Positions 6,091 through 60,980 of a stretch of 64,000 bases of DNA are shown here, piece after piece. Location of the stretch: positions 1,179-65,178 of the forward strand of contig JANLZB010000055.1 in NCBI GenBank assembly GCA_031366005.1, given 5' to 3'. This stretch comes from Bacteroidota bacterium. GTDB taxonomy: Bacteria > Bacteroidota > Bacteroidia > AKYH767-A > OLB10. Every line of letters begins with the position of its first letter. Position 1 is the stretch's first letter. The notes below the pieces were generated by a model that ran no database searches, was not told where the DNA came from, and saw only the letters and a program-made list of their open reading frames with translations. The translations under genes and the position numbers were made by a program.

Positions 6091-6147
6091 ATATTAATTG
6101 TTGATGTTTGTGAGATGCTTCCTTCGTAAGCATAATAAAACACTGAG

Positions 6148-7026
6148 TTAAAACAAATGTTTTTCTGCATGATAAGAGGACCTCACCAAAGGTCCGCTTT
6201 CAACATATCTGAATCCTTTTGATAAGGCAATTTCTTTATAACGGGCAAAACGATCAGGATGTACAAACTCTGATACTAATAAATGCTGTTTAGTAGGTTG
6301 AAGATATTGACCAAGGGTTAGAATATCAACACCTGAATTTTTAAGATCATCCAATGTCTCTAAAACTTCCTCATCTGTTTCACCTAATCCAAGCATCACT
6401 CCTGATTTGGTTCTTACTCCGCTTGCTTTTATACGTTTCAATACTTCAAGACTGCGATCATATTTTGCCTGAACACGCACTTGCTTAGTCAGTCTTCTCA
6501 CTGTTTCAAGATTGTGAGAAATCACTTCCGGTTTTTCATCAGTTACACGTTGAAGGTTTTCCCATTTCCCTGCAAAATCAGGAATTAATGTTTCCAGTGT
6601 TGTGCCGGGGCTTAACTCGCGTATAGCACGAATCGTTTCAACCCATATAAAAGAGCCGCCATCTTTTAAATCATCACGATCAACAGAAGTTACCACACAA
6701 TGTTTTACATTCATTAACTTAACTGAATTGGCAACGCGCATGGGTTCATTCATATCCACCGCGGAAGGACGACCTGTAGCCACAGCACAGAATCCGCAGG
6801 AACGAGTACACACATTTCCCAGTATCATAAAAGTGGCAGTGCCAGCTCCCCAGCATTCGCCCATATTAGGACAATTACCGCTTTCGCAGATAGTATGTAA
6901 TTTATTTTCTGAAACAAGATTGCGCACCTTACGGTATTCTTCTCCTGTGGGAAGTTTTACTTTAAGCCACGATGGTTTCTTTGGTTTTTCTTCAGGCATT
7001 GTTGCCACTTCAATCACTTCAGGCAT
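6148..7026 (-). CDS. lipA: Lipoyl synthase
   Basis: [26 protein letters not shown]. Confidence 0.97.
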
Positions 7027-7048
7027 TATAAAAAATTATGCGGTAAAA

Positions 7049-8393: not shown

Positions 8394-8448
8394 AGTTTAA
8401 AGTCTAAAGTCACATGCGCAACCAACTTTAAACTTTAGACTTTAAACT
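8394..8448. repeat. Perfect 17-bp inverted repeat built from ACTTTA(A/G) heptamers
   Basis: agtttaaagtctaaagt (8394-8410) and actttagactttaaact (8432-8448), with a third unit actttaa at 8425-8431. Confidence 0.9.
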
Positions 8449-21997: not shown

Positions 21998-22017
21998 CAA
22001 TTTCAATAAATAAAAAT

Positions 22018-22046
22018 GGAGCTTTTGAGAAACGGCTCCTTATTTC
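22018..22046 (+). terminator. Probable intrinsic terminator
   Basis: ggagc(t)...(g)gctcc stem at 22018-22039 followed by ttatttc, about 20 nt after the stop codon. Confidence 0.5.
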
Positions 22047-22121
22047 ATCTCTATTTTTTTTAATGATATAAAAATGTGATCATCTTCAGAGTGGTTTACA
22101 TCTTTTAATTTTTAATTTTGA

Positions 22122-25294: not shown

Positions 25295-25368
25295 GTCATA
25301 CTGAACTTGTTTCAGCATCTCTATAAAATGTGTACTTAAGAGCGATGCTGAAATAAGTTCAGGATGAC
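25295..25368. repeat. REP-like inverted pair (TGTC/CGTC-tagged type)
   Basis: gtcatactgaacttgtttcagcatc (25295-25319) and gatgctgaaataagttcaggatgac (25344-25368); 23 of 25 complementary. Confidence 0.85.
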
Positions 25369-27045: not shown

Positions 27046-27055
27046 AATAATAATA

Positions 27056-27138: not shown

Positions 27139-27154
27139 CCTTTAAAAAACACAA

Positions 27155-38205: not shown

Positions 38206-38227
38206 TTTTTTTTGATGGTTTTTAGGT

Positions 38228-39981: not shown

Positions 39982-40007
39982 TGAGCTTTATATGTTGAAT
40001 AAGAAAA

Positions 40008-40598: not shown

Positions 40599-40650
40599 GT
40601 TTATATAAAGTTTTTAAGCGAGAGCAAATTTATTTAAATAAAGGATTAAA

Positions 40651-40790
40651 GTGTTGAGATATTGAAGGATGTTAAATTGTTGAATTGTTAAATTGTTGAG
40701 GCTTCAAAGTGTGTATAAGTTTAATATATATAGTACTTCAATACTCCAACACCTCAACACAACACCTCAACACTCTAACACCCCAACACT
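40651..40790. repeat. Inverted tandem arms of TGTTGA/TCAACA units around a short spacer
   Basis: Left arm gtgttgag...tgttgaattgttaaattgttgag; right arm ccaacac ctcaacac aacac ctcaacac tctaacac cccaacac, abutting the trmB stop. Confidence 0.8.
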
Positions 40791-41456: not shown

Positions 41457-41505
41457 AGGGAATTTTTTTGTGGGATGCGAAAATACATAGAGTATTTTTG
41501 TTCCC

Positions 41506-42669: not shown

Positions 42670-42823
42670 ACCCCTCCTCATAAGCTTTCCACGTTTGTTG
42701 TCCTTCATCCTGTGTGGGGTAGTCCTGAACCTTTTTGTCGTAACAGCATTCCAGTGTGCCCGCAAGGAATTTCCTTCCAAAAAGCGAGATTTTGTAACGG
42801 GCATCATATTTTTCTCCAGTCAT
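42659..42823 (-). other. Possible 54-aa small ORF or 3' remnant of a gene
   Basis: ATG 42823 gives MTGEKYDARYKISLFGRKFLAGTLECCYDKKVQDYPTQDEGQQTWKAYEEGFNV*; the frame is stop-free back to 42976. Confidence 0.3.
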
Positions 42824-43037
42824 TGCTATCAGCCACTGATCCTGAAGAAAGGCGGTGCAACGAAAGCCCGTTGACCTGGCAATAACCTTATTAAGATGAG
42901 TACAAAATACACACTCTTGCGCTAAAATAAATGTGCTGTGATTTAAAACTAAAGGGTGATGATTAGAAACGAATGTTTAATGCACTAAAATTTGAATGTC
43001 AAGATTTTGGATTTGCTTTGTTTTGTTTGGGTTACAT

Positions 43038-43045
43038 TATCTTTG
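43038..43045 (+). promoter_or_regulatory. Bacteroidota -7 promoter box for the TA pair
   Basis: TATCTTTG with TTTG boxes at 43012-43020; ATG at 43074. Confidence 0.55.
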
Positions 43046-43073
43046 ATGAAGCAAAAACTTAAAACAAATAACA

Positions 43074-43310
43074 ATGAGTTCGTCCGAATTAAAAACAGGA
43101 ATAAATAAAATGCTGACTGATGTAAACGATGAACGATTTCTAAGAACTATGTACGCAATGGTAAGTGAATATACTGACGGAGGAATACTCAACTTATCCC
43201 CTGAACAAAAAAGAATACTTGAAGACAGAAAGAAATCACATAAGGCAGGTCAGTCAAAATCATTTTCAGTAAAACAGATGAAAGCATTAGTGCTGAAGAA
43301 TATTAAATGA
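43074..43310 (+). CDS. Putative antitoxin (addiction-module component-like)
   Basis: 78 aa; LSPEQKRILEDR motif; 4-nt ATGA overlap with the toxin. Confidence 0.7.
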   Translation: MSSSELKTGINKMLTDVNDERFLRTMYAMVSEYTDGGILNLSPEQKRILEDRKKSHKAGQSKSFSVKQMKALVLKNIK

Positions 43311-43606
43311 AGCTAACCGTTAAGGAAGAAGTTTATGATGATTTGGCTGACATTGTAAACTGGTACGAAAACCAATCTGCCGGCTTTGGAGAGAAATTTT
43401 TAAATGAATGGGAGAACACATTAAAATTTGTTGCAAGAAATCCGTCCGCATTTCAAACACAATTCAAAAGTTTTCGTCATGCAAAGGTTATTCGGTTTCC
43501 TTACCTTGTAATTTTTGAAATTGATACTGCCGAAGTTATTGTTTACATGGTCATTCATACCTCACGAAAACCTGGAAAAAGGTATCGAATAAAAAGAAAA
43601 AAATAA
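43307..43606 (+). CDS. RelE/ParE family toxin
   Basis: DLADIVNWYENQSAGFGEKF, NPSAF, RFPYLVIFEI, VIHTSRKP. Confidence 0.88.
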   Translation: MKLTVKEEVYDDLADIVNWYENQSAGFGEKFLNEWENTLKFVARNPSAFQTQFKSFRHAKVIRFPYLVIFEIDTAEVIVYMVIHTSRKPGKRYRIKRKK

Positions 43607-43694
43607 GGGTTGTATATCTAACTATCTTAAATGATAACCATCTCAAATCCGCAATTGAGGTTGGGGATTTTTTTTGGTTTGTTTACATTTGGTG

Positions 43695-43726
43695 CATGTT
43701 GGTGGGAAGGAAGGAACACCAACATG
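43695..43726. repeat. Perfect 10-bp hairpin, REP-like
   Basis: catgttggtg ggaaggaaggaa caccaacatg. Confidence 0.6.
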
Positions 43727-43830
43727 GGAGCATATAGTTTTCGCGCGGATGCTTGAACAGTGGGTAGCGGGATGTTTTGCCGAATCACTAAAACAATATT
43801 TTTTCTTAATGAAAGTTTATAATTACAATT

Positions 43831-45642
43831 ATGAAAAAATTAATCCTCCTGATATATCTTTCTCTTTTTTCATTCAACAGCTTTTCGCAAGCCGGTGAGT
43901 GGACATGGATGAATGGTGACACCATTAATTTTTCGCAAGGACACTATGGAACCAAGGGTGTACCCGATCCGCTTAATTCGCCACCTGCATTATCAGGGTC
44001 ATTGCAGTGGACAGATCTGCAAGGAAATTTTTGGTTATATGGTGGTTCATCTTATATCAATCCGAACATTGTTGGATATGCTGATCTTTGGAAATACGAT
44101 CCTCTTATTAATGAATGGACATGGGTATTTGGATCAGGATTAATTAATGATACTGTTAACTTTGGAATAAAAGGAATAGCATCATCAACTAATACACCGG
44201 GAAGCAGAGGAAGTACCTGTACATGGGTTGATCTTCAAGGTAATTTATGGCTTTATGGAGGTGTTGCACAAGTTTCAATAAATGGGCAACCTGTTGGAGA
44301 ACTTTTCGCTGATTTATGGAAGTATAATATCGCTACAAATCAATGGACGTGGGTTAATGGATATAATATTTTCCCTCCCCAGGTTGAACATCATCCACCA
44401 ACCAATAACCACCCAGGATCCCGAACCGGCTTAACTGCAAACTGGACCGACAATGCAGGTAACCTTTGGTTTTACGGAGGAATTGGGGATGGTTTTAATA
44501 ATTATGGCGACTTATGGAAATATGAAATAGCCTCAGATATCTGGACATTGATGAAAGGTGATACCATACCTAATCATAAAGGTTCTTATGGTTTCAAAGG
44601 AATTAGTAATGTTATTAATAATCCGGGATGCAGATTTGGAAATTTAAGTTGGAAAGAGACCAATGGAGACTTGTGGCTATTCGGAGGGCTGAAGAATGAT
44701 ACAGGCTCTTTTTATAATCAAAAAAATGATCTTTGGAAATACAGTATAACAACCAATATGTGGACATGGATGAATGGTGATTCTATAAAAAATGCTTTTG
44801 GAAATTTGGGTCTTAAATGTATTTCATCTATTGCTAATCAGCTAAGAGGACAATGGTCCACCGATGCCTGCTGGAGTGATGGTTGTGGTAACTTTTGGAC
44901 TTTTGGTGGAGTTACACTTAATCCCATTTATAATAGATCAAATGATTTATGGATGTATAGCACCTCAACTGGTAATTGGACATGGATAAGTGGCAATGGG
45001 TTTATGAATGGAGATGATATATACGGTATAAAAGGAGTATCAACCCCTACTAACAGCATTGGTGCAAGAGATTTTTCCAATGGATGGATAGACTTTAAAG
45101 GCAACTTCTGGATATTTGGTGCAAGGTCAGGTTATGACGGCAGAAATATGCTAGATTATATTCATATTTATGCAAATCCTCCAGTGCCTGTAATTACAAT
45201 AAGTAACGATACACTTAAATGCGTTACAAGCGGGAATGCTTACCAATGGTATTTTAATAATATGATTATCAATGGTGCGACTGATTCATTTTATGTTTTC
45301 AATGTAGCGGGTAATTATTATGTAACGATTGCAAACCATGGTTGCGAAGCTGCGAGCAATATAATTTCAAAACCTGAAATGGAAAATATGATCCACTTGG
45401 TAGTGATGCCCAACCCTGCTAATTTGGCTTTAACCATTTCTTTTATTCAACTGTCAAGTGAAAATGTTGAGTTAAGATTATACGATGCGTTAGGGAATGA
45501 AATTTATTTCTCAAAACACAATAATGTTAAAGGCAGGTTTGAAGAAGTAATAAGAATGAATGATCTTGCAAGCGGCATTTATTTCTGCCAGTTAAAAACG
45601 CAAAATGATTTCTACAATAAAAAAGTAATAGTACAGCATTGA
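43831..45642 (+). CDS. Kelch / galactose-oxidase-like repeat T9SS-secreted protein
   Basis: Signal peptide; repeats W.D..GN.WL.GG.....DLWKY....N.WTW..G; C-terminal VMPNPA...SGIYFCQL...KKVIVQH. Confidence 0.88.
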   Translation: MKKLILLIYLSLFSFNSFSQAGEWTWMNGDTINFSQGHYGTKGVPDPLNSPPALSGSLQWTDLQGNFWLYGGSSYINPNIVGYADLWKYDPLINEWTWVFGSGLINDTVNFGIKGIASSTNTPGSRGSTCTWVDLQGNLWLYGGVAQVSINGQPVGELFADLWKYNIATNQWTWVNGYNIFPPQVEHHPPTNNHPGSRTGLTANWTDNAGNLWFYGGIGDGFNNYGDLWKYEIASDIWTLMKGDTIPNHKGSYGFKGISNVINNPGCRFGNLSWKETNGDLWLFGGLKNDTGSFYNQKNDLWKYSITTNMWTWMNGDSIKNAFGNLGLKCISSIANQLRGQWSTDACWSDGCGNFWTFGGVTLNPIYNRSNDLWMYSTSTGNWTWISGNGFMNGDDIYGIKGVSTPTNSIGARDFSNGWIDFKGNFWIFGARSGYDGRNMLDYIHIYANPPVPVITISNDTLKCVTSGNAYQWYFNNMIINGATDSFYVFNVAGNYYVTIANHGCEAASNIISKPEMENMIHLVVMPNPANLALTISFIQLSSENVELRLYDALGNEIYFSKHNNVKGRFEEVIRMNDLASGIYFCQLKTQNDFYNKKVIVQH

Positions 45643-45794
45643 GGTATCTCAACTATTCTAAAGCATTGACACCACTGCATCAGTCCCATCAGCGTCTCCG
45701 CCTTTCACGGCACTCTGATGTTTGTAACAAAGGTGTTAAATAAGTTCTAATTACTCTCCACAAAAAACATATTAATCTCTCCCATATTCTTCAA

Positions 45795-46778
45795 CTACTT
45801 CACCACATACATCACTTCCTTCACTGCTTTAATTACACGCTCAGGGTTTGGGAGATAAGCTTCAATCAAAGTGGGTGCGTAAGGCAAGGGAACATCACCA
45901 CCCATTACACGGATTACAGGTGCATCGAGATAATCAAAAGCTTCGCGCTGAACTTTAAATGTTACTTCTGTTGCAATGGAACCAAGTGGCCAGCTCTCTT
46001 CAACGATCACCAAACGATTGGTTTTTTTAACTGATTCAATCACTGTTTTATAATCTATAGGCCGAACACTTCTCAAATCAATAACTTCTGCATTAATATT
46101 TTCTTTGGATAGTTCTTCAGCAGCTTTCAAAGCAATCTTCATCATCTTGCCAAAAGAAACAATGGTAACATCAGTTCCTGCACGTTTAATATCAGCAATA
46201 CCAATTGGCATTAAGTATTCGCCATCAGGCACCATTCCTTTATCACCATACATCTGCTCACTCTCCATAAAAATAACAGGATCATCATCACGAATAGCAG
46301 ACTTCAATAAACCTTTTGCATCAGCAGGATTACTGGGAACAACCACTTTCAAACCCGGACAGTTTGCATACCAGCTTTCAAATGCCTGTGAGTGCTGAGA
46401 GCTGAGCATTCCGGCAGCTCCGGTTGGTCCGCGAAACACAATCGGAACCGTAAAATGACCGCCACTCATACTCATCATTTTTGCTGCTGAGTTAATTACC
46501 TGGTCAATGGCAACAAGAGAAAAATTGAAAGTCATAAATTCAATGATAGGCCGTAATCCATTCATAGCTGCTCCCACACCAATGCCTGCAAAACCAAGTT
46601 CTGCAATAGGTGTATCAATAACGCGTCTTGCTCCAAACTCGTCCAGCATTCCCTGGCTTACTTTATAAGCTCCATTGTATTGCGCTACTTCCTCTCCCAT
46701 CAAAAACACACGTTCATCTCTCCGCATTTCCTCGTTCATGGCTTCGCGAAGCGCCTCTCTGAATTGTAATTCTCTCAT
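45795..46778 (-). CDS. pdhB: Pyruvate dehydrogenase E1 beta subunit
   Basis: [43 protein letters not shown]. Confidence 0.95.
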
Positions 46779-46782
46779 AAGG

Positions 46783-46790
46783 CAAAAATA
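46783..46790 (-). promoter_or_regulatory. -7 promoter box 4 nt upstream of the pdhB ATG
   Basis: TATTTTTG on the minus strand, then cctt, then ATG. Confidence 0.55.
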
Positions 46791-46930
46791 GTTATTGAGT
46801 TGTAATGTTGTTTAGGTATTAAGTGATTACGTAATTGAGGTAATTAAGGCGATTGTGGATATTCTTTAGAGGAAAATAATTAGTTTTGCCAATCAAAATT
46901 TAATCAGAAATTTTTACAGGACGGCTTTAG

Positions 46931-46965
46931 CCGTAAACTGTAAACCGAAAACTGTAAACTGAAAA
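46931..46965. repeat. Five in-phase heptamers C(C/T)G(T/A)AAA ending at the etfB ATG
   Basis: ccgtaaa ctgtaaa ccgaaaa ctgtaaa ctgaaaa(tg). Confidence 0.85.
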
Positions 46966-47702
46966 TGAAAATCCTTGTTTGCATAAGCAACGTACCAGAT
47001 ACTACTTCCAAAATAAATTTTACTGACGATCATAAATCTTTCGTTTCCACGGGAATTCAATTTATCATTAATCCTTATGATGAAATTGCTTTGACACGTG
47101 CTCTGGAATTAACGGAAGAAAGTGGTGGAACTGTGACAGTAATAAATGTGGGTGATCCAACTACGGATCCCACTATACGTAAAGCTTTGGCAATTGGAGC
47201 AACGGATGCTGTGCGTGTAAATGCTGCACCACGTGATGCTTATTTTGTTTCAAAACAGATTGCTGCTTACGCAAAAGATAAAGGTTTTGGTCTGATATTA
47301 ACCGGTCGTGAGTCCATTGATTATAATGGTGCACAGGTGCCGGGTATGTTGGGTGAGTTGTTAGAAATGCCAAGCATTACGATTGTAAAATCTTTAAATA
47401 TTGAAGGAAGCAATGCAACGCTTGAGCGCGAAATAGAAGGAGGTAAAGAAATTATTAATTGCCCGTTACCATTAATTGCAAGTGCATCTGAAGGCATGGC
47501 AGAACCTCGAATTCCAAACATGCGCGGAATTATGTCAGCCCGCACAAAACCGCTTACAGTTGTTGAACCTGTTGAAGTTCCAAAACTGCAAGAGGTTATA
47601 TCTTATGATAAACCCAAACCAAGAGGCACTGTTCATCTGGTACCAAATGACCAGGTGAAACAGCTTGTTGATTTATTACACAACGAAGCAAAGGTTTTCT
47701 GA
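46965..47702 (+). CDS. etfB: Electron transfer flavoprotein beta subunit
   Basis: VCISNVPDT, INPYDE, ALAIGA, GRESIDYNG, PRIPNMRGIM. Confidence 0.95.
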   Translation: MKILVCISNVPDTTSKINFTDDHKSFVSTGIQFIINPYDEIALTRALELTEESGGTVTVINVGDPTTDPTIRKALAIGATDAVRVNAAPRDAYFVSKQIAAYAKDKGFGLILTGRESIDYNGAQVPGMLGELLEMPSITIVKSLNIEGSNATLEREIEGGKEIINCPLPLIASASEGMAEPRIPNMRGIMSARTKPLTVVEPVEVPKLQEVISYDKPKPRGTVHLVPNDQVKQLVDLLHNEAKVF

Positions 47703-47704
47703 TT

Positions 47705-47750
47705 ATTCAGAATTAAATTCATAACTCATAATTCAAAATTCATAACTATA
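47705..47750. repeat. Tandem A(T/C)TCATA-type heptamer tract between etfB and etfA
   Basis: attcaga attaa attcata actcata attcaaa attcata actata. Confidence 0.75.
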
Positions 47751-47755
47751 AATTA

Positions 47756-48730
47756 ATGGTTTTAGTTTACGCAGAGCACGCAGAAGGAAAATTTAAAAAG
47801 TCAACTTATGAGGTGGTGTCTTATGGATACGCAATCGCTTCAAAGCTAAATATTCCTTTGAGCGTTATTTCAATTGGTGATGTGAGTAAAGAAGAATTAA
47901 GTTTACTTGCAAAATATGGCGCTTCAAAAATTTTAAATGTAAGTATTGATAAACTCAAAACATTTGTTAACCAGGCTTACGCTGCTGTGATTGCCGCTGC
48001 TGCCAAACAGGAAAACGCAAGTGTTGTTGTTATGAGTGCTTCATTCACCGGAAAAGGACTTGCTCCACGAGTGGCAGTTAAGTTAGAAGCAGGATTAGTG
48101 GATGGAGCTATTTCATTACCGGATATGACAAACGGTTTTGTTGTTCGTAAGGGAGCATTCTCCGGAAAAGCATTTGCTGATGTAACATTAACAAGTGCCG
48201 TTAAAGTAATTACGTTAGTTCCGAACTCTTATAAAGTTGTTGAAAATTCTCAACCCATTCAAATAATTGATTTTGCCCCTACAGTTAAAGACAATGATTT
48301 TGCTGCAATGGTAAAAGATATTGTTCGTGCTTCAGATAAAGTATCATTGCCTGAAGCAGAAATTGTTGTGAGTGGAGGTCGTGGATTAAAAGGACCTGAG
48401 AATTGGGGAATGATTGAAGAGCTTGCAGATTTACTTGGTGCGGCTACAGCCTGTTCCAAGCCTGTGAGTGATGCACATTGGCGTCCGCACAGCGAACATG
48501 TCGGGCAAACAGGAATTGCAGTAAGCCCTAATTTATATATTGCTATTGGTATTTCAGGAGCCATTCAGCATTTAGCAGGAGTGAGTTCTTCCAAAGTGAT
48601 TGTGGTGATCAATAAAGATCCTGAAGCTCCTTTCTTCAAAGCGGCTGATTATGGTATTGTGGGTGATGCATTTGATGTGGTGCCTCAGTTAATTGAAGCC
48701 ATCAAAGAATTTAAAGCAGTTAATGCCTGA
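47756..48730 (+). CDS. etfA: Electron transfer flavoprotein alpha subunit
   Basis: VVSGGRGLKG, HVGQTG, LYIAIGISGAIQHLAG, INKDPEAP. Confidence 0.95.
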   Translation: MVLVYAEHAEGKFKKSTYEVVSYGYAIASKLNIPLSVISIGDVSKEELSLLAKYGASKILNVSIDKLKTFVNQAYAAVIAAAAKQENASVVVMSASFTGKGLAPRVAVKLEAGLVDGAISLPDMTNGFVVRKGAFSGKAFADVTLTSAVKVITLVPNSYKVVENSQPIQIIDFAPTVKDNDFAAMVKDIVRASDKVSLPEAEIVVSGGRGLKGPENWGMIEELADLLGAATACSKPVSDAHWRPHSEHVGQTGIAVSPNLYIAIGISGAIQHLAGVSSSKVIVVINKDPEAPFFKAADYGIVGDAFDVVPQLIEAIKEFKAVNA

Positions 48731-48765
48731 TTTATTATTTTCACATCGGATTAAAAATGTACATG

Positions 48766-48859
48766 AATTCCGCAATTTCCCATTTCGCATTTGATTCGTC
48801 CCGATGTATCGGGATCGTAACATTCGTATCTCATTCGTTAATTAGTAACCATCATTCGT
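48766..48859. repeat. CATTCGT-type heptamer tract with an embedded TCCCGAT-NN-ATCGGGA palindrome
   Basis: cattcgt occurs three times (the last overlaps the GTG start at 48858); tcccgatgtatcggga at 48799-48814. Confidence 0.75.
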
Positions 48860-49481
48860 GAAAAAAATTAAACTCGAAATAATCGGTCTCTCATTCAGTC
48901 AAACCCAATCCGGTGCTTATGCTTTAGTGCTTGGTGAAGAAATTGGTAAACGCAGATTACCAATAATCATTGGAGGTTTTGAAGCGCAAGCTATAGCTGT
49001 TGAGTTGGAAAACATGACTCCGAGCCGTCCGCTGACGCATGATCTTTTTAAGAATTTTGCAATTGAGTTTGGTCTAACCGTTACAGAAATTGTGATTTAC
49101 AATCTTAAAGAAGGAATTTTTTATTCCAAACTAACCTGTACCAATGGCAATGAGACAAAAGAAATTGATGCACGGACTTCTGACGCAATTGCAATGGCCG
49201 TTCGTTTTAATTGTCCTATTTACACTTACGAATTTATTCTTGCATCGGCAGGAGTTGTGTTAGATGAAAGCGGTGAGGAAGTAGGAGCCACACCAAAATC
49301 CAAATCAACTAAGAAAACGCCAGTAGAGAAAAAAGCAATTACCGGAGGAGAAGGCGAATACGCATCACAAACAGTGGAGGAGCTGAAAGAATCTTTGATG
49401 CGCGCCATTGATGAAGAAGCTTATGAAACGGCTTCAAAAATTCGTGATGAATTGAATAAGAGAAAAAAGAGCTCGCAGTAA
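48858..49481 (+). CDS. Bifunctional nuclease family (DUF151) with C-terminal UVR domain
   Basis: RLPIIIGGFEAQAIA, RPLTHDL, IDARTSDAIAMA, YETASKIRDEL. Confidence 0.92.
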   Translation: MKKIKLEIIGLSFSQTQSGAYALVLGEEIGKRRLPIIIGGFEAQAIAVELENMTPSRPLTHDLFKNFAIEFGLTVTEIVIYNLKEGIFYSKLTCTNGNETKEIDARTSDAIAMAVRFNCPIYTYEFILASAGVVLDESGEEVGATPKSKSTKKTPVEKKAITGGEGEYASQTVEELKESLMRAIDEEAYETASKIRDELNKRKKSSQ

Positions 49482-49486
49482 ATTTT

Positions 49487-50752
49487 TTATTTAAACGAAT
49501 CATATACCGTTTTGTATTGTTTCGCTATAATAGAGTAGGAGTATAAGCTTTTAGTTTTTTCTCTTGCTTTTTGCTTAAGTGTATCATAGCGTTCCTTGTC
49601 TTCTAAAATCCATTTAATTCCATTAGCAAAATCCTCAGCATTGCAGTAATCTGCCAGATAACCGTTTTGCTGATGGTCAATTAAATCAGGAATACCTCCA
49701 ACGTTAAAAGCAACCGAAGGTGTACAACAAGCCATGGCTTCCATAATGGTGTTAGGTAAATTTTCTTCTAACGATGGAAGCACAAACACATCGCTTGCAT
49801 TATAATAATCAGCCATTAACTTTTCATCCGATATATATCCCGGTAAATGCACAGGAAATTCTACTTCTTCATAACCTTCATTCTTCACCTGACCAATCAC
49901 AATCAACTCAATATCGTAAGCAATTTGCTGATCATGTAAAATTTTTAATGCATCCTTTAAATAAGAAATACCTTTATAATAGGTTGAAACATTTGCAGCA
50001 ATAAAAGAGAGATAACGTTTGTCAGGATTCAATCCCAATCGTTTTCGTGCTTCAGCTTTATCTGTGGGTTTATATAATTCTAAATCCAGCGGGTTTGGTA
50101 TCACATGAATTTGTTTCTCATTGAACAGATTACTTTCCAATGCACATTTTGCAAGCCATTTGCTGGGAGTTACAATTTTGAGATTTGCATTTTTATAAAT
50201 CTTATGCTTGAATAGTTTAATACGATTGCTTAAATCATTTGCATGTGGACTTTTCAAAAAAGGACAATTGCCACATACGTTTTTAAAATGATTACAACCA
50301 CGGCTATGATGACAACCACCTGTAAACATCCACATATCATGCAAAGTCCACACCACTGGTTTGCCTGATGCAAATATTTTTGCTAATCCTTTCAGGGAAA
50401 TAAAACCATGGTTGATCCAATGCAAATGCAAAATATCGGCTTCATTAATCCATGGTTGATTGGTGATATTACATCCAACATTAGCTGGAGAAAAATTAAA
50501 ACGAATGTCTTTATTTCTTTCATAAGGAAGAAATAAAAGCCGCTCAAGATAAATTCTTGCAAAAGCAATTCTTCGATTTGTTACTGCGGTATAATCTTTA
50601 TCATTTGCGATGGATTCATCCGGGTAATGAACAAGATGATGAACTTGTAAATCATTTTCTTTTATTAATGCTTCTGACAATCGCCTGCAAGCAACAGCTG
50701 CTCCACCTTTATTGTGATGAGTATTGACAAGCAGAATTTTTTTTGAAGACAT
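49487..50752 (-). CDS. Glycosyltransferase family 4 (WcaC-like)
   Basis: GGAAVACRRL, HLHWIN, WTLHDMW.FTGGCH, PSLEENLPNTIMEAMAC. Confidence 0.9.
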   Translation of the reverse strand: MSSKKILLVNTHHNKGGAAVACRRLSEALIKENDLQVHHLVHYPDESIANDKDYTAVTNRRIAFARIYLERLLFLPYERNKDIRFNFSPANVGCNITNQPWINEADILHLHWINHGFISLKGLAKIFASGKPVVWTLHDMWMFTGGCHHSRGCNHFKNVCGNCPFLKSPHANDLSNRIKLFKHKIYKNANLKIVTPSKWLAKCALESNLFNEKQIHVIPNPLDLELYKPTDKAEARKRLGLNPDKRYLSFIAANVSTYYKGISYLKDALKILHDQQIAYDIELIVIGQVKNEGYEEVEFPVHLPGYISDEKLMADYYNASDVFVLPSLEENLPNTIMEAMACCTPSVAFNVGGIPDLIDHQQNGYLADYCNAEDFANGIKWILEDKERYDTLKQKAREKTKSLYSYSIIAKQYKTVYDSFK

Positions 50753-50770
50753 TTTTTTGACGTTATTTTA

Positions 50771-50914
50771 GAACGCGGATGACGCTGATAAAATGGATTT
50801 AAAAGGGATTAAATCTGCTGTTGTCATTTTAATGGAACGCGGATGACGCTTATAAAATGGATTTAAATGGATTAAATCAGTTCTTATCCTTTCCATCCGT
50901 TTCATCCGCGTTCC
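50771..50914. repeat. Two direct ~46-bp copies (period 64) plus one inverted partial copy, GAACGCGGAT family
   Basis: gaacgcggatgacgct(g/t)ataaaatggatttaaa at 50771 and 50835; atccgtttcatccgcgttcc at 50895-50914. Confidence 0.88.
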
Positions 50915-50921
50915 AATCATT

Positions 50922-51917
50922 TCAACAAGAATAAAACTTTTTCAATTGCTCTTTAAACTCATTCAAATTCCAATCACGCACCAGTACACGTGGCAAAGCA
51001 TGTAAGTTACTCCAACTATGCACCTGGTTATGATAATTGGCACAGGTCATTTTAAAATTTAATGCTTTGCAAACTTCAATGCTATCAGCATTAAAATCTT
51101 TTTTTGAGCCGAAAGGATAAGAAGCATGTTCAATTTTTGTATTCAGTAATTGTACTAAAAAATCTTTCGACATTTTCATTTCATGCATTTGCACATCTTT
51201 ATTAAACATTGACATAGGAGAATGAGAATGTGTGTGTGCACCAATTACTGCAGATTTTGAAGCATGCAATTTTTTTAGCTCTTCAAAGGTGAGTAAACGA
51301 TGTGTAGCTCTGCCCGTTACATTTACTCCAACGTGATTACGTAATTCAAGTAATAAGTTTTCACGATGTAAAGGCAGTTGCCATTTCAAAAGCGGATGTA
51401 ATATAAAATAAGTTTCATTTCGCTGTTCATCAGTTGAGGTTGGAAATGAAAAATCTTTTCCCTTAATTTTTAAGTTAATTACCTGAGGAAGTTTTTTGCC
51501 GGTTAATAGAATTCGTTCAAGCTCATCCCACCATAATTCATTGGTTGTATTAATGTGTGATGTGGTGATATAAAAAATTGCTTCAGCATTATTGCTTTCT
51601 AATATTGGAATAACTTCATTATAATTATCTGCATAACCATCATCAAATGTTATTAAAGCAGTGTGCTTTGGAAATTTCTTTTTGGATTGTATAAGATGTG
51701 CAAATTCATCAGCTGTTACCACATTATAATTCTTCTTTAAAAATGAAACCTGCTCATTAAAATTATCTGGTGAAACAGCAAGCAGTTGTGTATCAATTTC
51801 AAGTTTTGTTACACGATGATAAATAAAAATTACTGCTGGGGTGTCAATAAGATTGGAGATGTATCTTATTGGAGTGGAGGCAGTGTTGAAGAGAATGGAT
51901 TTAAGAGATAAATTCAT
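50922..51917 (-). CDS. Polysaccharide deacetylase (probable start ATG 51917)
   Basis: IFIYHRV, LITFDDGYADN, WWDEL, IGAHTHSH, SYPFG, LPR. Confidence 0.9.
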   Translation of the reverse strand: MNLSLKSILFNTASTPIRYISNLIDTPAVIFIYHRVTKLEIDTQLLAVSPDNFNEQVSFLKKNYNVVTADEFAHLIQSKKKFPKHTALITFDDGYADNYNEVIPILESNNAEAIFYITTSHINTTNELWWDELERILLTGKKLPQVINLKIKGKDFSFPTSTDEQRNETYFILHPLLKWQLPLHRENLLLELRNHVGVNVTGRATHRLLTFEELKKLHASKSAVIGAHTHSHSPMSMFNKDVQMHEMKMSKDFLVQLLNTKIEHASYPFGSKKDFNADSIEVCKALNFKMTCANYHNQVHSWSNLHALPRVLVRDWNLNEFKEQLKKFYSC

Positions 51918-51971
51918 GCTGAAAATCGGATCTCTTTCGTGCTGGGCATTTGTGAAGGTCGGTGTTGTCAA

Positions 51972-52415
51972 TCAACTTCTTGCTGTTCTCAAAGCAAGCA
52001 ATTCAGTGGTATTATAAACTCGTTTGAAATTTTTTCGTTTGAGTCCATTGAAGAGTTCCTTGTCACCTGTCCACAAATGACCTTTGAGGTGTTTCGTGAG
52101 TGCTACAAAATCAGAATCATCAATGTCAATGCTTCCAACAATTTCTTCTGCCGTTTTCCATGTCTTACTTGGAATAAGTTCTTCATTGATGAAATTTATC
52201 TTTGTAAATAATCTGAATTTTGAAATCTGTAATTCGCCTTCAGATAAGTTGGAAATTCGTTTGAGTTTTTCCCAATGTTTTTCAATTTCATAGCGCATGT
52301 AGCCGCAACTATAAAATTGAAAAACATTGTCCGAATTAAAAAGCAAATCACCAATTGTTCCATTAGTATTCAGCATTGCACTGAAAACAATATTTGTGTC
52401 AACAATAACTTTCAC
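51972..52415 (-). CDS. PIN domain toxin
   Basis: VIVDTNIVFSA, IDIDDSDFVAL, LWTGDKEL. Confidence 0.9.
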   Translation of the reverse strand: MKVIVDTNIVFSAMLNTNGTIGDLLFNSDNVFQFYSCGYMRYEIEKHWEKLKRISNLSEGELQISKFRLFTKINFINEELIPSKTWKTAEEIVGSIDIDDSDFVALTKHLKGHLWTGDKELFNGLKRKNFKRVYNTTELLALRTARS

Positions 52416-52615
52416 TTGATAAATCGGCTACGGTTTTTTTTCCACCAGCCTTTCTTAACTTCTCTGGCAAGTTTGTCCACAGCAGTCTGTTTTGCTTTTG
52501 ATTTGGAAGTTGCTTCCTTATAGCTCAAATAATCCACTATCCGTTGCAAACCTTCTGTGTCCACATAGGAGGGAAGCCGAATTATCACTTCATTATTTGT
52601 TCTCTCTATCAACAT
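52412..52615 (-). CDS. Cognate antitoxin (probable start ATG 52615)
   Basis: MLIERTNNEVIIRLP...KGWWKKNR; 4-nt overlap with the PIN gene; the ORF-track TTG start lies inside a TATCTTTG -7 box (52634-52641). Confidence 0.75.
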   Translation of the reverse strand: MLIERTNNEVIIRLPSYVDTEGLQRIVDYLSYKEATSKSKAKQTAVDKLAREVKKGWWKKNRSRFIK

Positions 52616-52898
52616 AAGTTCTATTTCTTGTTTCAAAGATAGCTAATGAAAAGCTAAATTGTTTTAGTCAATAATACGGTCACCTAAACGATCAAAATAT
52701 TGACAGTTCGCTTTTAAGCAATCTGCTCATTAAATTTCAGACGATATGGCAAGTTGTTATGTGTCTATTTTTAATATCGGTTACGCGATGGTAAATTAAA
52801 ATTACAGAGGGCGTAGTATCTACAAGATTTGAAATATATCTTGCAGGTGTGTTGATTGAATTGTAAATAAAAGATTTAACAGACATTGCTATTCATCG

Positions 52899-53702
52899 CT
52901 ATCGATAAGCATAAATATTCAACTGCATATCCATTACTTTTTCTTTTACTTTTTTTAGAAATGGTTGTCTGAGTTTATAATTATTTTCCATGTTATAACG
53001 CAAACCGTTTTTTTCAAAAATACCTAATATAGCTGACAGGTTTTGTTTACTTTTTGAATAAGAATGATACTCCAGGAATACATGTTGCACATGTCCGAGG
53101 CTGTTTTCACAATCCAACATCACTTCTGATTCAGCTCCTTCAATATCCATTTTTAACATGTCAACCTGATTTTCTTTTTCAAGCCAGTCACGCAATCTTA
53201 TTGCCTGTACTAATTGTTTATTTGCTGAGTTATTCATCAGTGAACCACCATCAGCACCTTCACTGCTAAAATTAAGTTGTTCTTCATTGATCCAAACAGC
53301 TTTATTAATCACCTCAGCATTATTAATATTATTTGAATCTAAATTATTTCGTGCAATCTCACTGATTTTTTTATCCGCTTCAAAAGCTAATATTTTTGCA
53401 TTAGGAAATTTGTTTGCAAAGAATAAACTTGCTAACCCAACATTAGCACCACAATCATAAATGACTGGTTGTTTTGCATCAGTTTCAAAATCATAACAGC
53501 GGTCAACCATTATTTCTTTATACTGCCACACAAACGATATTGCATCAGGAATGGAGAATTGATAACCGTTAAATGAAATTTTTCTTTCAATAAATCTGGG
53601 ACTGTTCCCATATTTCAACAACATCCACAAAAACTTACGATAATTCTTTTCTGATAAAATATCATAAGGCACTTTCATTGTTTGCTGAACAAATGCTTTC
53701 AT
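52899..53702 (-). CDS. FkbM family methyltransferase
   Basis: IYDCGANVG, AFEAD, LKMDIEGAE, LEYH. Confidence 0.9.
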   Translation of the reverse strand: MKAFVQQTMKVPYDILSEKNYRKFLWMLLKYGNSPRFIERKISFNGYQFSIPDAISFVWQYKEIMVDRCYDFETDAKQPVIYDCGANVGLASLFFANKFPNAKILAFEADKKISEIARNNLDSNNINNAEVINKAVWINEEQLNFSSEGADGGSLMNNSANKQLVQAIRLRDWLEKENQVDMLKMDIEGAESEVMLDCENSLGHVQHVFLEYHSYSKSKQNLSAILGIFEKNGLRYNMENNYKLRQPFLKKVKEKVMDMQLNIYAYR

Positions 53703-57750: not shown

Positions 57751-58509
57751 ATGCCAGACACATTCACTCCCCTTATTTCCATCATTACTGTTGTTTACAA
57801 TGCAAAGCAAGCATTGGAATCTACTATCAATAGCATCGTTTCGCAAAACAACCAATCATACGAGTACATTGTTATTGATGGGGGATCAACAGACGGAACT
57901 CTTGAAATAATTAAACAACATGAATCTCATATAGCATATTGGGTAAGTGAACCAGACAAGGGATTGTATGATGCAATGAACAAAGGATTACGTGCTTCAA
58001 AAGGAAAATACATCTGGTTTATGAATGCTGGTGATTTGATTTATGATAACTATGTAATTGAAAACATTGCTAATATTTATTCACCTAATTCAGATATTTT
58101 TTATGGAGAAACGGTGATGATTGATGCTCTGGGAAATATATTGGGAGACAGAAGACTGAAAGCACCGGAAACACTCTCTTATGAAAGTTTAAAACAAGGT
58201 ATGGTGGTATGTCATCAGTCATTTATTGCAAAAAAATCATGTTGTGCATTTTATGATACGCAATATAAGATTGCAGCAGATATTGACTGGATGATTAAAA
58301 CATTAAAGAGCAGCAGGAATATTGTGAATATGCATCAATACATTACCCGTTTCAAAGATGATGGATTATCAAAGAAAAATATTCCAAGAAGTTTGAAGGA
58401 ACGCTTTAAAATAATGGTGCATCATTATGGAATTATATCAACAGTGCTAAATCACTTTCGCTTAGGAACCAACTTTTTTCTTTACGTTTTGCGAAACGGG
58501 AGGTTCTGA
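57751..58509 (+). CDS. Glycosyltransferase family 2 (WcaE-like; probable start ATG 57751)
   Basis: ISIITVVYNA, IDGGSTDGT, EPDKGLYDAMNKG, FMNAGD, CHQS, AADIDW. Confidence 0.9.
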   Translation: MPDTFTPLISIITVVYNAKQALESTINSIVSQNNQSYEYIVIDGGSTDGTLEIIKQHESHIAYWVSEPDKGLYDAMNKGLRASKGKYIWFMNAGDLIYDNYVIENIANIYSPNSDIFYGETVMIDALGNILGDRRLKAPETLSYESLKQGMVVCHQSFIAKKSCCAFYDTQYKIAADIDWMIKTLKSSRNIVNMHQYITRFKDDGLSKKNIPRSLKERFKIMVHHYGIISTVLNHFRLGTNFFLYVLRNGRF

Positions 58510-60918
58510 CTGTGACTGTTTTTTTAAACCAATAATTGAAAATCCAACTATCAGAATAACAATTAGTGATGAACCAGCCAACGCAATTTTTTGTGTTAAA
58601 TAATAATCCTGTGGTTCAAATTTAAATTTTATTTCATGCGTACCTGCAGGTACACGCAACGCACGCAATACATAATTAACTCTGAAATGATCAGCTTTTT
58701 TTCCATCTACATAAGCCTGCCATCCGTTAGCATAATATATTTCTGAAAACACAGCAAGCTGTTCACTGTTCGTCTGTGTTTTGTAATCAGCTTCGTTTGG
58801 TTGAAAATGTGTGAGTGTAATGCTTGCATTAGAATCAGGTTGAATCTTAAATCCATTCAATTGATTTTTGAATCTTTCATCAATTATTGCAACGTTTTTT
58901 GGATCGAAATTGCTGAGCGCACTCATTTCACTATCAGCATTGGGAACCCATTTTATATCACTTACAAACCAGGCATGTCCTAATGCACCAGGGTTCATTT
59001 GTGCAACAGGTTGTTGTGCGCCTTGTGGCTGAACAATAAAATATTTTGTATTCAGCATATTCAACACCTGCATATTGTTTTTGCTGATCTGGTATTCTAT
59101 CAGTTCCTGGTAGCGTTTCATTTTTGCACCATGATATCCACCGATTGATTTATGAAAATAAGAAGTGCTCGCATCATTGAAAGTACTTACAGTAGTATTC
59201 ATTACTCTGTAATCCGGATCGGGATCTTTTAAAATCTGTTCATCAGCTGCTGAGGCAGTAAACGGAACTTCTACTTTACCTTTTGCAACAAAATGTGTGT
59301 TGTTAAAATAACGCTTGTTCACTGTCCACATATCCAACAGCAATAAGCCTCCAAGTGACAGGTATAAAATCTTTTTTTGAATTTTATTCTGTATGGTAAA
59401 ATAAATTAGCAGCGCTGCAGCAACAATAAAAAATAATGAGCGGAATGCGTCAACCCTTAAAGCGTTAGCCCGGTCTTCTTTTATTGCATCAAGCAACCAT
59501 GGATATTGTGTAAAGTTTGAATCTACTTTACCACTTAATCCCAGCAAGCCGGGTAATATTAAAAACAAGAGACAAATTCCACCGGTGATATAGGTGGAGC
59601 GAAGAAGAGCTTGCTTTCCCTGATTTAAGGGAATACTTCCATCCAGTATTTTTTTCAATCCCAATAATCCTAAAAACGGCATTGTGAATTCAGCGATAAT
59701 TAATGTCATACTCACAGCACGGAATTTATTGTAACCCGGAAAATAATCGAAGAAGATATCAGTAAACCACTGAAAGTTACGTCCCCATGCCAGAAGAATT
59801 GATAACACAGTTGCTGTTAACAACCACCATTTATCTATTTCTTTAATCAACATTAATCCTAACACAAACAGAAAAAATATAATTGCTCCTACATAAGTAG
59901 GTCCGTTGGTGATGGGTTGGTCGCCCCAGTATAGCGGAACACTTTTAATAAACTGTTGTGCCTGTCCTTCACCTGCATTTTGCACTAATGCCTTGTAAGT
60001 TGCCGAATTGCGGTCAAGCTGTGTTTGTGAAGCACCACCCATAAAATCAGGAATAAGCAAAGTCATCGTTTCTGCAATTCCATAACTCCAGTCAGTAGCA
60101 TAATCTTTATCAAGACCAGTCGAAACTTTTTTCTCTGTCAGTTCAGAAGGACCACGCGTACTGTATTTTCCATAATCGTACACTGAATAAAGCGAAGTAA
60201 TATTAGGCAACACAGCAAGGAGTACCGCAGCACTCACCATTCCGGTGCTTTTAAAAAATATAATTATTTGTTTCTTTCTGATTGCATCCACCAGGTACAT
60301 GATAACCATAATGAGCAAAGCCAGTGCTGTGTAATAAGTGATCTGGAGATGATTACTGTAAATCTCAAGGCCCATTCCCATTACCGTTAAAATAAAACCG
60401 GTAACATAATTTTTCTTATATGAAGAAAGTACACCTGCTACCATTACAGGTGCAAATGCAAGTGCCATTGCTTTAGTAACATGACCTGCCTGTATGATGA
60501 TGAAAAAGTAGGAGGAGAATGCATAAGCAATAGCTCCCACTATTGCCAGCCGCTGATCAAATTTTAAAACACATAGCAAAATATAAAAGCCGATCAAATA
60601 AAGAAAAATTAATTGAGCAGGATCAGGTAATCCAAGGGTGGAGATTCTAAATATGTATGCAAAAATATTTTCATGAATAACATTGGAGATTAAATAAGCA
60701 GGCATTCCACTGAACATACTGTTTGACCATAGCGGATCAATTCCGGTTTTTTCACGAAAGTCAACAGTTTCTTTTGAAGATCCCCGCGTAACATTCATAT
60801 CATGCTGATCTACTTTTTTACCACTTAACACAGGAGCACAATAGACTAAAGCAATTAATGCAAACAATGCAATTGCAATCAGATGTGGTATTGATTTCTT
60901 TAGAAGGGATGAGAACAT
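58462..60918 (-). CDS. YfhO family membrane protein (putative GT-C glycosyltransferase)
   Basis: WSNSMFSGMPAY, AGHVTK, NHLQITYY, SIGGYHGAK..RYQEL, FSEIYY..GW, NYVLRAL.VPAG.H. Confidence 0.88.
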   Translation of the reverse strand: MFSSLLKKSIPHLIAIALFALIALVYCAPVLSGKKVDQHDMNVTRGSSKETVDFREKTGIDPLWSNSMFSGMPAYLISNVIHENIFAYIFRISTLGLPDPAQLIFLYLIGFYILLCVLKFDQRLAIVGAIAYAFSSYFFIIIQAGHVTKAMALAFAPVMVAGVLSSYKKNYVTGFILTVMGMGLEIYSNHLQITYYTALALLIMVIMYLVDAIRKKQIIIFFKSTGMVSAAVLLAVLPNITSLYSVYDYGKYSTRGPSELTEKKVSTGLDKDYATDWSYGIAETMTLLIPDFMGGASQTQLDRNSATYKALVQNAGEGQAQQFIKSVPLYWGDQPITNGPTYVGAIIFFLFVLGLMLIKEIDKWWLLTATVLSILLAWGRNFQWFTDIFFDYFPGYNKFRAVSMTLIIAEFTMPFLGLLGLKKILDGSIPLNQGKQALLRSTYITGGICLLFLILPGLLGLSGKVDSNFTQYPWLLDAIKEDRANALRVDAFRSLFFIVAAALLIYFTIQNKIQKKILYLSLGGLLLLDMWTVNKRYFNNTHFVAKGKVEVPFTASAADEQILKDPDPDYRVMNTTVSTFNDASTSYFHKSIGGYHGAKMKRYQELIEYQISKNNMQVLNMLNTKYFIVQPQGAQQPVAQMNPGALGHAWFVSDIKWVPNADSEMSALSNFDPKNVAIIDERFKNQLNGFKIQPDSNASITLTHFQPNEADYKTQTNSEQLAVFSEIYYANGWQAYVDGKKADHFRVNYVLRALRVPAGTHEIKFKFEPQDYYLTQKIALAGSSLIVILIVGFSIIGLKKQSQSEPPVSQNVKKKVGS

Positions 60919-60980
60919 GGTTGAACTGTTTATAGTTTGATTGTTGATTGTTGAATTGTATGATTGAATAGGTGAGATGA

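Follow-up and report, generated by a model that had tools for sequence, protein, structure and literature searches.

Gene-junction repeats of a Sphingobacteriales-like bacterium as probable gene-less copies of several small palindromic element families

The spacers between genes in a 64,000-nt stretch of a Bacteroidota genome (contig C84:1179-65178, the whole of which is hereafter called the window) carry short repeats in the form of inverted arms, one-sided word arrays and hairpins. Based on their distribution in the window, in the rest of the genome and in other genomes, it was concluded that these junction repeats are probably non-autonomous copies (miniature, one-armed or decayed) of very small, selfish palindromic elements, which belong to no fewer than four separate families. 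We proposed that the elements colonise stop-to-start spacers in this Sphingobacteriales-like genus, and that each family in its full form would have a single resident gene, of small size, enclosed by arms particular to that family. In class H, inverted arrays of 7-8-nt units would surround a four-helix-bundle (4HB) gene for a protein of the S23p or intervening-sequence (IVS) type (PF05635/TIGR02436). In class W, inverted arms of short words with an irregular spacing of 8-12 nt would surround a gene for a GxxExxY PD-(D/E)XK nuclease, and in class G, (C/T)GTCAT- or CCGAT-type hairpins would surround the gene of a GIY-YIG nuclease of about 100 aa. Class T would comprise the ends of an IS200-like Y1/HUH transposase element.

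Abundance of the junction repeats

The genome under study (3.68 Mb, 36% G+C, 97 contigs) was 99% complete, and its nearest named relatives were Sphingobacteriales metagenome-assembled genomes (MAGs), Mucilaginibacter and Pedobacter. The gene content of the window was that of ordinary housekeeping and envelope genes, including gap, lipA, osmC, a deaminase, two-component systems, a UvrD-like helicase, an aldehyde dehydrogenase, recR, lemA, trmB, etfB, etfA, glycosyltransferases and type IX secretion system (T9SS) cargo.

The repeats that a first-pass annotation had located at the gene junctions were recovered as described at all 21 sites (Table 1). The three designs into which it had sorted them were present as features, but did not map cleanly onto biological classes, since the sites 30718, 31536 and 48766 turned out to be of the phased-word GxxExxY type rather than heptamer arrays. 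Its statement that the window holds no transposase or recombinase agreed with the Pfam scan, where none was found among 46 open reading frames (ORFs), six of them without a match at the cut-offs and about ten further ORFs being unscanned. The window inverted repeats at 25295-25368, 27056-27138, 29918-30073, 33265-33460, 33550-33703 and 50768-50916 were of 23-41 nt with a complementarity of 71-96%, and arrays of period 7 or 8 lay at 46931-46965, 47719-47751, 40670-40790 and 60920-60966.

Such repeats were abundant in the whole genome. Genome-wide, TRF detected 385 intergenic and 180 coding arrays of period 7, with intergenic DNA making up only about 10% of the genome. Arrays of an exact 6-mer repeated three times numbered 164 in the spacers vs 2.2 in shuffles, and ungapped inverted repeats with a score of at least 13 occurred in 324 spacers vs 1 of 549 shuffled spacers. 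Most window elements were found again in 7-44 other spacers of the genome each, as expected of the multi-copy families that had been predicted; lower numbers of matches in other spacers were recorded for 33239 and 36245 (none), 43695, 50771 and 60920 (one each), 6115 and 45687 (two each) and 31536 (three). The window was rejected as a hotspot of the repeats, because by one automatic criterion 10 of its 35 spacers of at least 40 nt were occupied (29%), compared to 445 of 1910 elsewhere (23%, p 0.43). Known RNA families (Rfam) had no match anywhere in the window. A simple scan called no intrinsic terminator at the listed sites within 30000-49999, its calls amounting to 11 overall vs 15.2 expected.

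Pairing of arm designs with small genes

All genes of the genome were scored for inverted flanks with a threshold of at least 36, and mismatched flanks served as the control. The threshold was reached by 46 genes vs 6 in the control, and the small genes among them were of the 4HB, GxxExxY, GIY-YIG, RAYT-like, IS200-like Y1 and DUF559 types. The genome holds ten 4HB genes (TIGR02436, PF05635), none of which lies inside the window, nine GxxExxY genes (TIGR04256, PF13366 PDDEXK_3), eight small GIY-YIG genes and two IS200-like Y1 transposases of 149-152 aa.

Each gene family had arms of its own design. Arrays of 7- or 8-nt units were present at all ten 4HB genes and formed inverted arms at nine of them. 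At seven of the nine GxxExxY genes, the inverted arms consisted of short words spaced irregularly by 8-12 nt (GCAGAT/ATGAT, ACGAAT, CTCTGTG, CACATAG, CGCAGAG). Inverted period-7 arms were found at none of the nine, although for four of them a lag of 7 or 8 was the top result of the per-flank scan in a single flank. The small GIY-YIG genes were accompanied by (C)GTCAT arms (5/8) or CCGAT-ATCGG hairpins (3/8), and the proteins flanked by class G arms were 98-139 aa long. The IS200-like gene was bounded by ends of its own type and the RAYT genes by their own hairpins; none of the hairpin motifs associated with RAYT (NF047646) was seen in the window. The window words CAGAT, CGGAT/CTGAT, ACGAAT and CACATAG matched the word types at GxxExxY genes, and individual window arms corresponded to those of full copies with a gene elsewhere in the genome (Table 1). 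On contig C23:31000-35700, GAACGC(A/T)GAT...ATGAT word arms separate three genes from each other, two of the GxxExxY type and one deaminase-like; this region is a local pile-up of class W elements.

The same pairing was observed in other genomes. By a loose criterion, an array with a lag of 7 was recorded in the flanks of 38 of 58 4HB genes from other Bacteroidota vs 2 of 231 control segments, and in 49 of 68 across about 15 phyla vs 6 of 272, the cross-phylum set having been gathered with a back-translated PANIAEG pattern. Of 56 4HB genes in other genomes, 34 had a best flank lag of 7 and nine a best flank lag of 8. At the GxxExxY flanks of other Bacteroidota, a best lag of 7 occurred in 0 of 29, and inverted flanks occurred in 19 of 29. 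A Xanthomonas MAG carried a 4HB gene with GGGAATC-type units in its 3' flank. Hence, the arm design and the gene family were paired one to one both in this genome and in others, which indicates that the small genes belong to their arms.

The 4HB protein of the genome matched the S23p pentamer (PDB 2GSC, E 5.6e-22), and the best PDB matches of the small GIY-YIG proteins were UPF0213 proteins; no solved relative of the GxxExxY protein was found by sequence. Of the 19 4HB and GxxExxY genes, 16 had the same orientation as the genes on either side vs a baseline of 0.47 (p 8e-4), suggesting a reliance on read-through transcription.

Some of these domains were also met inside long frames. In three Bacteroidota genomes (G099:C1:1297252, G103:C9:91044 and G115:C22:338277) a full-length GxxExxY match lay within a stop-free frame of 883 aa, and the unit may have been inserted in-frame in a larger gene. 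On contig C17:9556-13773 of the genome under study, a match to DUF559 (Vsr-like endonuclease) lay within a 1405-aa ORF, as would fit a unit of this type inserted in-frame into a large gene.

Turnover of the elements at orthologous junctions

Two congeners were aligned to the window, namely G001 over about 41 kb (EtfA 96% identical, nucleotide identity of about 87-92%) and G002 over about 19 kb (EtfA 88% identical). Six elements (6112, 8394, 29918, 40646, 46931 and 48766) were common to the window and G001, with changes. Those changes were compensatory between the arms at 8394 and affected the units at 40646. The compact hairpin at 31728 was conserved in G001 as well. Other junctions of G001 differed in kind. 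A different GTCAT family with the same boundaries was present at 25295, a GTCAT hairpin pair took the place of the ACGAAT array at 30718, and the CACATAG element at 31536 was missing (spacer of 98 vs 313 nt). The etfB-etfA array of G001 (site 47705) held a nested insert consisting of an ACGAAT array and a hairpin.

In G002, the junctions 6112, 8394, 29918 and 48766 were short and plain; the site of 29918 was an empty 20-nt junction and the spacer of 48766 measured about 45 nt, the alignment anchors being 59 nt apart. Other words were found at 46931 and at 40646 (GAGAATT / TAATTACC), and the array at 47705 was longer. At the junction of the aldehyde dehydrogenase and exonuclease genes, the 109-nt spacer of the window carried the palindrome 27056, and both congeners had a small module instead (window position 27046-27154). 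This module comprised a 76-aa ORF, a PemK/MazF toxin and DUF2442 in G001 (L356:2051-3027), and DUF2442 with a small ORF in G002 (L359:8095-8714); no such arms were seen around it in either genome. The junction is thus a recurrent landing place for small selfish modules.

Outside the genus, the listed junctions were almost always plain in 24 family- or order-level relatives. The palindrome 8394 was sought in 14 relatives, of which only G000 and G001 were occupied. Most of the 80 etfB-etfA junctions of Sphingobacteriales were plain spacers of 25-35 nt, and five had arrays or hairpins of an unrelated kind, one being the GTTTAC hairpin of L034. No small gene was found at the etf junctions of the 80 etfA loci, the single GIY-YIG gene in L066 being located 1.8 kb downstream.

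Polarity and sequence of the heptamer arrays

Among 68 palindromes of period 7, the 5' arm contained more G than C in 56 and less G than C in 5 (p 6e-12). Since a palindrome is the same on both strands, the bias reflects an intrinsic rule by which the G/T-rich arm comes first and the C/A-rich arm is 3'. Convergent spacers kept the polarity (5:1), as did elements located over 30 nt away from a start codon (8:1). Around 4HB genes sampled across phyla, the bias was 24:5 in the 5' arm and 22:6 in the 3' arm. Arrays up to 25 nt upstream of start codons were G-poor in the sense strand (144:29), and those just after stop codons were G-rich (120:33).

The units were biased to AGT(T)NNN, with AGT in 195 of 379 units vs 87 expected; the commonest were AGTTTAC (49 arrays), AGTTATG (39) and AGTTTAA (33). 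Palindromes with a common word also agreed loosely in their loops (consensus TCGTGCGT.AGC; GCTTGCGCA), which speaks for descent by copying rather than an independent origin. No selection for RNA pairing was seen in the heptamer palindromes, where the ratio of G.U to A.C mismatches in the sense strand was 57:62.

Interpretation and rival explanations

We proposed that the gene-less copies would owe their production or movement to the proteins that full-length copies encode, which would act in trans on single-stranded DNA hairpins. For classes G and T, such mobilisation is inferred from the hairpin-directed enzymes demonstrated for Ssn and for the IS200/IS605/RAYT relatives, and the class W copies would be moved by a PD-(D/E)XK nuclease that recognises its own words. 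In class H, the periodic arms would be bound by a non-catalytic pentamer, which in turn would depend on enzymes of the host, and replication slippage would afterwards alter the number of units. An origin of a reverse-transcriptase or telomerase-like kind was rejected, as no RVT_1 domain was found in the 99%-complete genome. Bacteroidota start translation without Shine-Dalgarno pairing. The elements would persist at junctions where insertions are tolerated, and their C/A-rich 3' arms would serve as acceptable G-poor leaders.

Several observations weighed against this proposal. No movement of any element was observed, and neither a target-site duplication nor a clean excision footprint was convincing at the filled/empty pairs (29918 and 48766 vs G002, 31536 vs G001), the flanks of which had diverged. 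A catalytic domain is lacking in the 4HB protein, and no RVT_1 reverse transcriptase was found in the genome. The lag-7 flank criterion was loose, and the armed fraction of 4HB genes given above may be overstated. Gene-less heptamer arrays lay within one mismatch of the word of a resident 4HB gene in 53% of cases vs 36% for a shuffled-word null (maximum 73%), which was not significant because shuffled AT-rich words matched almost as often; the commonest word of all, AGTTTAC, had no resident 4HB gene. The strand bias of arrays at start and stop codons would also be predicted by a host function. Finally, the compact hairpins 33239, 36248 and 45687 were single-copy and fell in no class.

The repeats could alternatively be generic, pre-existing cassette or attachment sites of one trans-acting system, with 4HB, GxxExxY, GIY-YIG and DUF559 genes as interchangeable cargo, and the first-pass annotation had read them as empty sites of this kind. 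The part of that reading which stood was the association with small genes together with a behaviour of the mobility type: 4HB, GxxExxY and GIY-YIG genes do lie between the same arm types elsewhere in the genome, the families were neither single-copy nor free of filled/empty polymorphism, and the same junctions were reused by different inserts (25295 and 30718 compared to G001, and the PemK/DUF2442 module at 27056). The check on whether one small-gene family goes with each arm family yielded a strict pairing, and this one-to-one pairing is the main argument against empty sites with exchangeable cargo. Moreover, the empty orthologous junctions had no arms at all, which implies that the arms arrive with the element; the toxin-antitoxin module of G001 and G002 was likewise armless. 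No integrase-like or common enzyme was found among the Pfam-scanned ORFs of the window, about ten being unscanned, and DUF559 was tied to no window family. A set of generic cassettes served by a single system was therefore regarded as very improbable.

It was also considered that the repeats are host-serving RNA or DNA signals, the hairpins acting as intercistronic terminators or mRNA stabilisers. The elements occupy whole stop-to-start spacers, their strand bias follows start and stop codons, and translation initiation without Shine-Dalgarno pairing would suit such a role. The same placement was reported for TAACTGA by MacGregor in 2015, where binding of S1, Csp or Csr was proposed (PMC4679880). 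However, the junctions were plain in nearly all relatives outside the genus as well as in G002, one junction carried different families in turn, and the downstream genes had no common theme. The G.U mismatches were not in excess over A.C, neither a terminator-like call (30000-49999) nor an Rfam match was obtained at the listed sites, and the polarity persisted in convergent spacers and away from start codons. We consider host signals unlikely as an explanation of the repeats. A benefit to the host from G-poor leaders is a live secondary possibility, which explains neither the origin of the elements nor their distribution or family replacement.

Ordinary replication-slippage tracts (simple sequence repeats) and chance hairpins, arisen in place and immobile, would account for the unit numbers that vary between congeners at the same junction. 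The bacterial excess of heptamers has been ascribed to polymerase slippage (cited in PMC4679880 and PMC4692102), and the heptamer number varies among Coxiella strains (PMC4990558). Nevertheless, slippage yields no complementary array across a loop or a gene, as seen in the 68 palindromes and their polarity, and it leaves unexplained why the arrays go with one gene family, why tens of unlinked junctions have identical words with related loops, and why non-periodic hairpins exist as families of near-identical copies, e.g. CGTCATTGCGAGGAACGAAGCAATC. This explanation was judged very unlikely.

If the repeats are indeed copies of small selfish elements, about one quarter of the spacers of at least 40 nt in this genome would be occupied by units that turn over between congeners, which would make them a major and unannotated contributor to variation at the operon junctions of Bacteroidota. 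Such repeats should not be annotated as terminators, promoters or attachment sites. The PF05635 four-helix-bundle protein provides a concrete, testable partner for unexplained heptamer repeats and ties them to rRNA intervening sequences, and the GxxExxY and small GIY-YIG genes act like residents of the palindromes that enclose them. Together with the arms that go with them, the four small proteins could make compact tools for recognising DNA by its sequence or structure.

Relation to known systems

The 23S rRNA IVS of Coxiella burnetii is a selfish sequence with an S23p ORF in a stem cleaved by RNase III and with tandem GACAGAT heptamers, the number of which varies between strains (PMC4990558). 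Class H resembles the IVS of Coxiella burnetii and Leptospira, regarded as selfish and possibly mobile, in the protein family (PF05635), in the ORF located between long inverted arms and in the tandem heptamers by the ORF. Unlike the IVS, which lie in rRNA helices, the elements described here occupy spacers between protein-coding genes, and most copies, numbering in the hundreds, are gene-less or one-armed. RNase III processing has been shown for the IVS; in class H the wobble comparison gave no RNA-level signal.

Orphan heptamer repeats have been described twice. TAACTGA units just upstream of start codons were reported from Beggiatoaceae, Cyanobacteria and five Bacteroidetes with no mechanism (PMC4679880), and GGGAATC in Xanthomonas and GGGGAYT in Nostoc, many of them as convergent inverted pairs (PMC4692102). 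The arrays of the window share with these repeats the tandem arrangement of 7-nt units in spacers, frequently with a start codon only a few nt downstream and in the 'forward' orientation, the unit numbers that shift in 7-nt steps between strains, and the convergent inverted pairs that are numerous in Xanthomonas. The window units TAACTCA and TAAACTG are one or two bases from TAACTGA. Those two papers name no associated gene, and 'S23' and 'four helix' are absent from their full text, whereas the arrays described here are tied to 4HB genes. Class H links unexplained 7-base repeats to the protein family of 23S rRNA intervening sequences. It is possible, though on balance doubtful, that the intergenic heptamer excess of bacteria, the cyanobacterial STRR-type, TAACTGA and GGGAATC repeats and the 23S rRNA IVS form one selfish superfamily based on non-catalytic four-helix-bundle pentamers (S23p/Avd-like), of which the palindromes without a gene and the one-armed arrays of the window would be abundant offspring. 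In that case the fixed polarity would record how these elements arise, possibly with the G/T-rich strand being synthesised reiteratively from the two 3' ends of a break.

REP (repetitive extragenic palindromic) elements with a CGTC tag were reported without a RAYT (PMC3733652) and have since been linked to the Ssn GIY-YIG nucleases, which cut single-stranded DNA beside their own flanking hairpins (PMC11893778). The premise of the first-pass annotation that such REPs are mobilised by RAYT enzymes was imprecise in this respect. Class G resembles this system in a (C/T)GTC tag, a stem of about 8 bp (8-9) starting with AT, a loop of 4-5 nt and head-to-head dimers, all present at 25295-25368 and less clear at 29918, and in arm-gene-arm units with a single-domain GIY-YIG protein of about 100 aa. 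Some arms (GTCATTCAGGAGGAAACTTGTCA) differ from the CGTC-tagged REPs in having no obvious sub-hairpin. The published degenerate SRM motif had 2 hits in the genome vs 4-7 in shuffles, with none in the window, and was unusable in this AT-rich genome.

The REPIN-RAYT system and the miniatures of IS200/IS605 (PMC3116915, PMC2817692) resemble the present elements in that many non-autonomous palindromic doublets accompany a few protein-coding masters, with Y1/HUH enzymes acting on single-stranded DNA hairpins without target duplication; the element 33550-33703 is an IS200-like miniature. In contrast to REPIN-RAYT, the dominant classes here use 4HB, PD-(D/E)XK and GIY-YIG proteins, and the H and W arms are word arrays rather than a single conserved hairpin. 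Integron-like cassette sites would call for a common recombinase and for interchangeable cargo between like sites; no recombinase was detected among the Pfam-scanned window ORFs, and genes and arms were paired one to one as described above. Published relatives exist for class G (Ssn/CGTC-REP) and class T (IS200-like). As far as searched, the heptamer/4HB (IVS-like) and the GxxExxY phased-word families are not in print as elements between protein-coding genes, and no published description of GxxExxY genes as residents of phased-word palindromes was found.

Individual sites and neighbouring regions

Table 1. Junction elements of the window with their sequence features and counterparts in the genome
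Position	Strand	Element	Sequence and setting	Counterparts
6112-6133	.	Solo degenerate GTCAT-type hairpin arm	GAGATGCTTCCTTCGTAAGCAT; between lipA stop and gap start	22 nt matched in two other spacers; resembles reverse complement of GTCATGCTGAGGTACGAAGCATCTC arms
8394-8448	.	Heptamer-array palindrome (class H)	AGTTTAA/AGTCTAA arms, 17-bp perfect inverted repeat, 21-nt loop; most of the 80-nt osmC-deaminase spacer	18 related spacers
25295-25368	.	Head-to-head TGTC/CGTC-tagged hairpin pair, GIY-YIG-linked (class G)	GTCATACTGAACTTGTTTCAGCATC; each arm TGTC-ATACTGAA-CTTGT-TTCAGCAT	20 related spacers; GIY-YIG gene C57_10689 between the same arms
27056-27138	.	Phased-word palindrome, GxxExxY-type arms (class W)	CTGAT/ATGAT words	7 related spacers; similar arms (GAACGCTGATTTTTATGAT...) at GxxExxY genes on C23
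29918-30073	.	Gene-less miniature of GIY-YIG element (class G)	23-nt arms GTCATTCAGGAGGAAACTTGTCA, 110-nt core, 96% complementary	14 related spacers; full copies with GIY-YIG genes C71_7296 and C6_16357
30718-30750	-	One-sided ACGAAT word array (class W)	Adjoins recR start codon	33 ACGAAT x3 arrays in genome; ACGAAT arms flank GxxExxY gene C24_122077
31536-31615	.	CACATAG/CTATGTG word palindrome, GxxExxY-type (class W)	C/A-rich arm first	GxxExxY gene C74_60909 flanked by the same words
31728-31744	.	Compact hairpin, YCCGAT-N-ATCGGR family	TTCCGATAAATCGGAA	55 such hairpins in genome, 37 intergenic; a near-identical one flanks GIY-YIG gene C22_20254
33239-33253	.	Single-copy small hairpin	TCCGGACAAGCCGGA	No match in other spacers
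33265-33460	.	Phased-word terminal inverted repeats, GxxExxY-type words (class W)	GACGCAGATTAACAGATGTGAACAGATT; 28 nt, 96% complementary, 140-nt core	14 related spacers; 16 CAGAT x3 arrays in genome; similar CGCAGAT/CACGGAT words flank GxxExxY genes, here and in other genomes
33550-33703	.	Gene-less miniature of IS200-like Y1-transposase element (class T)	TTAACCTTAGTAGAAAA ... AAGGTAATAAGGT ... TTTTCTACTAAGG	Same end architecture around 149-aa PF01797 gene C24_86593; common motifs TTAACCTTAGTAGAA and AAGGTAATAAGGT
36248-36328	.	GC-rich hairpin and 21-nt x3.5 tandem repeat	GGGGTTGAATATTTTCAACCCC; after T9SS Kelch gene; not terminator-like by simple scan	Single copy
40646-40793	.	7/8-nt word palindrome	GTGTTGAG/ATTGTTGA ... 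CAACACCT; between lemA start and trmB stop	12 related spacers
43695-43726	.	Hairpin, low-copy family	CATGTTGGTG-GGAAGGAAGGAA-CACCAACATG	About 10 GGTGG-AAGGAA-CACC hairpins in genome
45687-45720	.	Imperfect hairpin, convergent spacer		Only the adjoining 74 nt match one paralogous 3' region
46931-46964	+	One-sided C/A-rich heptamer array (class H)	CGTAAAC/TGTAAAC; adjoins etfB ATG	34 related spacers
47705-47751	+	One-sided C/A-rich heptamer array (class H)	CATAACT/CATAATT; adjoins etfA ATG	44 related spacers; 4HB gene C9_7457 flanked by the same words
48766-48857	+	Composite element (class W)	TTCCGCA/TTTCGCA words, CCCGAT-ATCGGG hairpin (48799-48814), ATTCGT x4 arm with TAATTAGTAACC adjoining start codon	35 related spacers; full copy C24_122077
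50768-50916	.	Phased-word element	GAACGCGGATGACGCTGATAAAATGGAT; two direct 5' arms, one 3' arm	Low copy number
60920-60966	-	One-sided 7/8-nt array	TTGATTG/TTGTTGA on +; sense leader C/A-rich; adjoins yfhO-like start codon

Two further repeats of the window lay outside the first list or inside a gene. A hairpin with a 10-bp stem (TTATGGAGAA ... TTCTCCATAA) was noted at 38610-38645, between the TPM-domain gene and the DMT_6 gene. An AGTTTAC/GGTTTAC heptamer array was present at 36040-36070, in the region coding for the C-terminal T9SS sorting domain of the Kelch protein (35025-36248); it had a weak inverted partner at 36148-36178 and may be an in-frame array within the gene.

Compared to the window, G001 carried extra DNA of about 2.8 kb at 5042-5097 (L357) and of about 1.1 kb at 21998-22121 (L356), so that gene-sized insertions and deletions likewise concentrated at junctions. 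The window region 42600-45794 (3.2 kb), with a 78-aa ORF, a ParE-like toxin, the hairpin 43695 and a 603-aa T9SS Kelch protein, was missing from G002, which had 73 nt there. The region 50744-52902 (2.1 kb), which holds the element 50768-50916, a polysaccharide deacetylase, a PIN_2 protein and a 74-aa ORF, corresponded to only 22 nt in G002.

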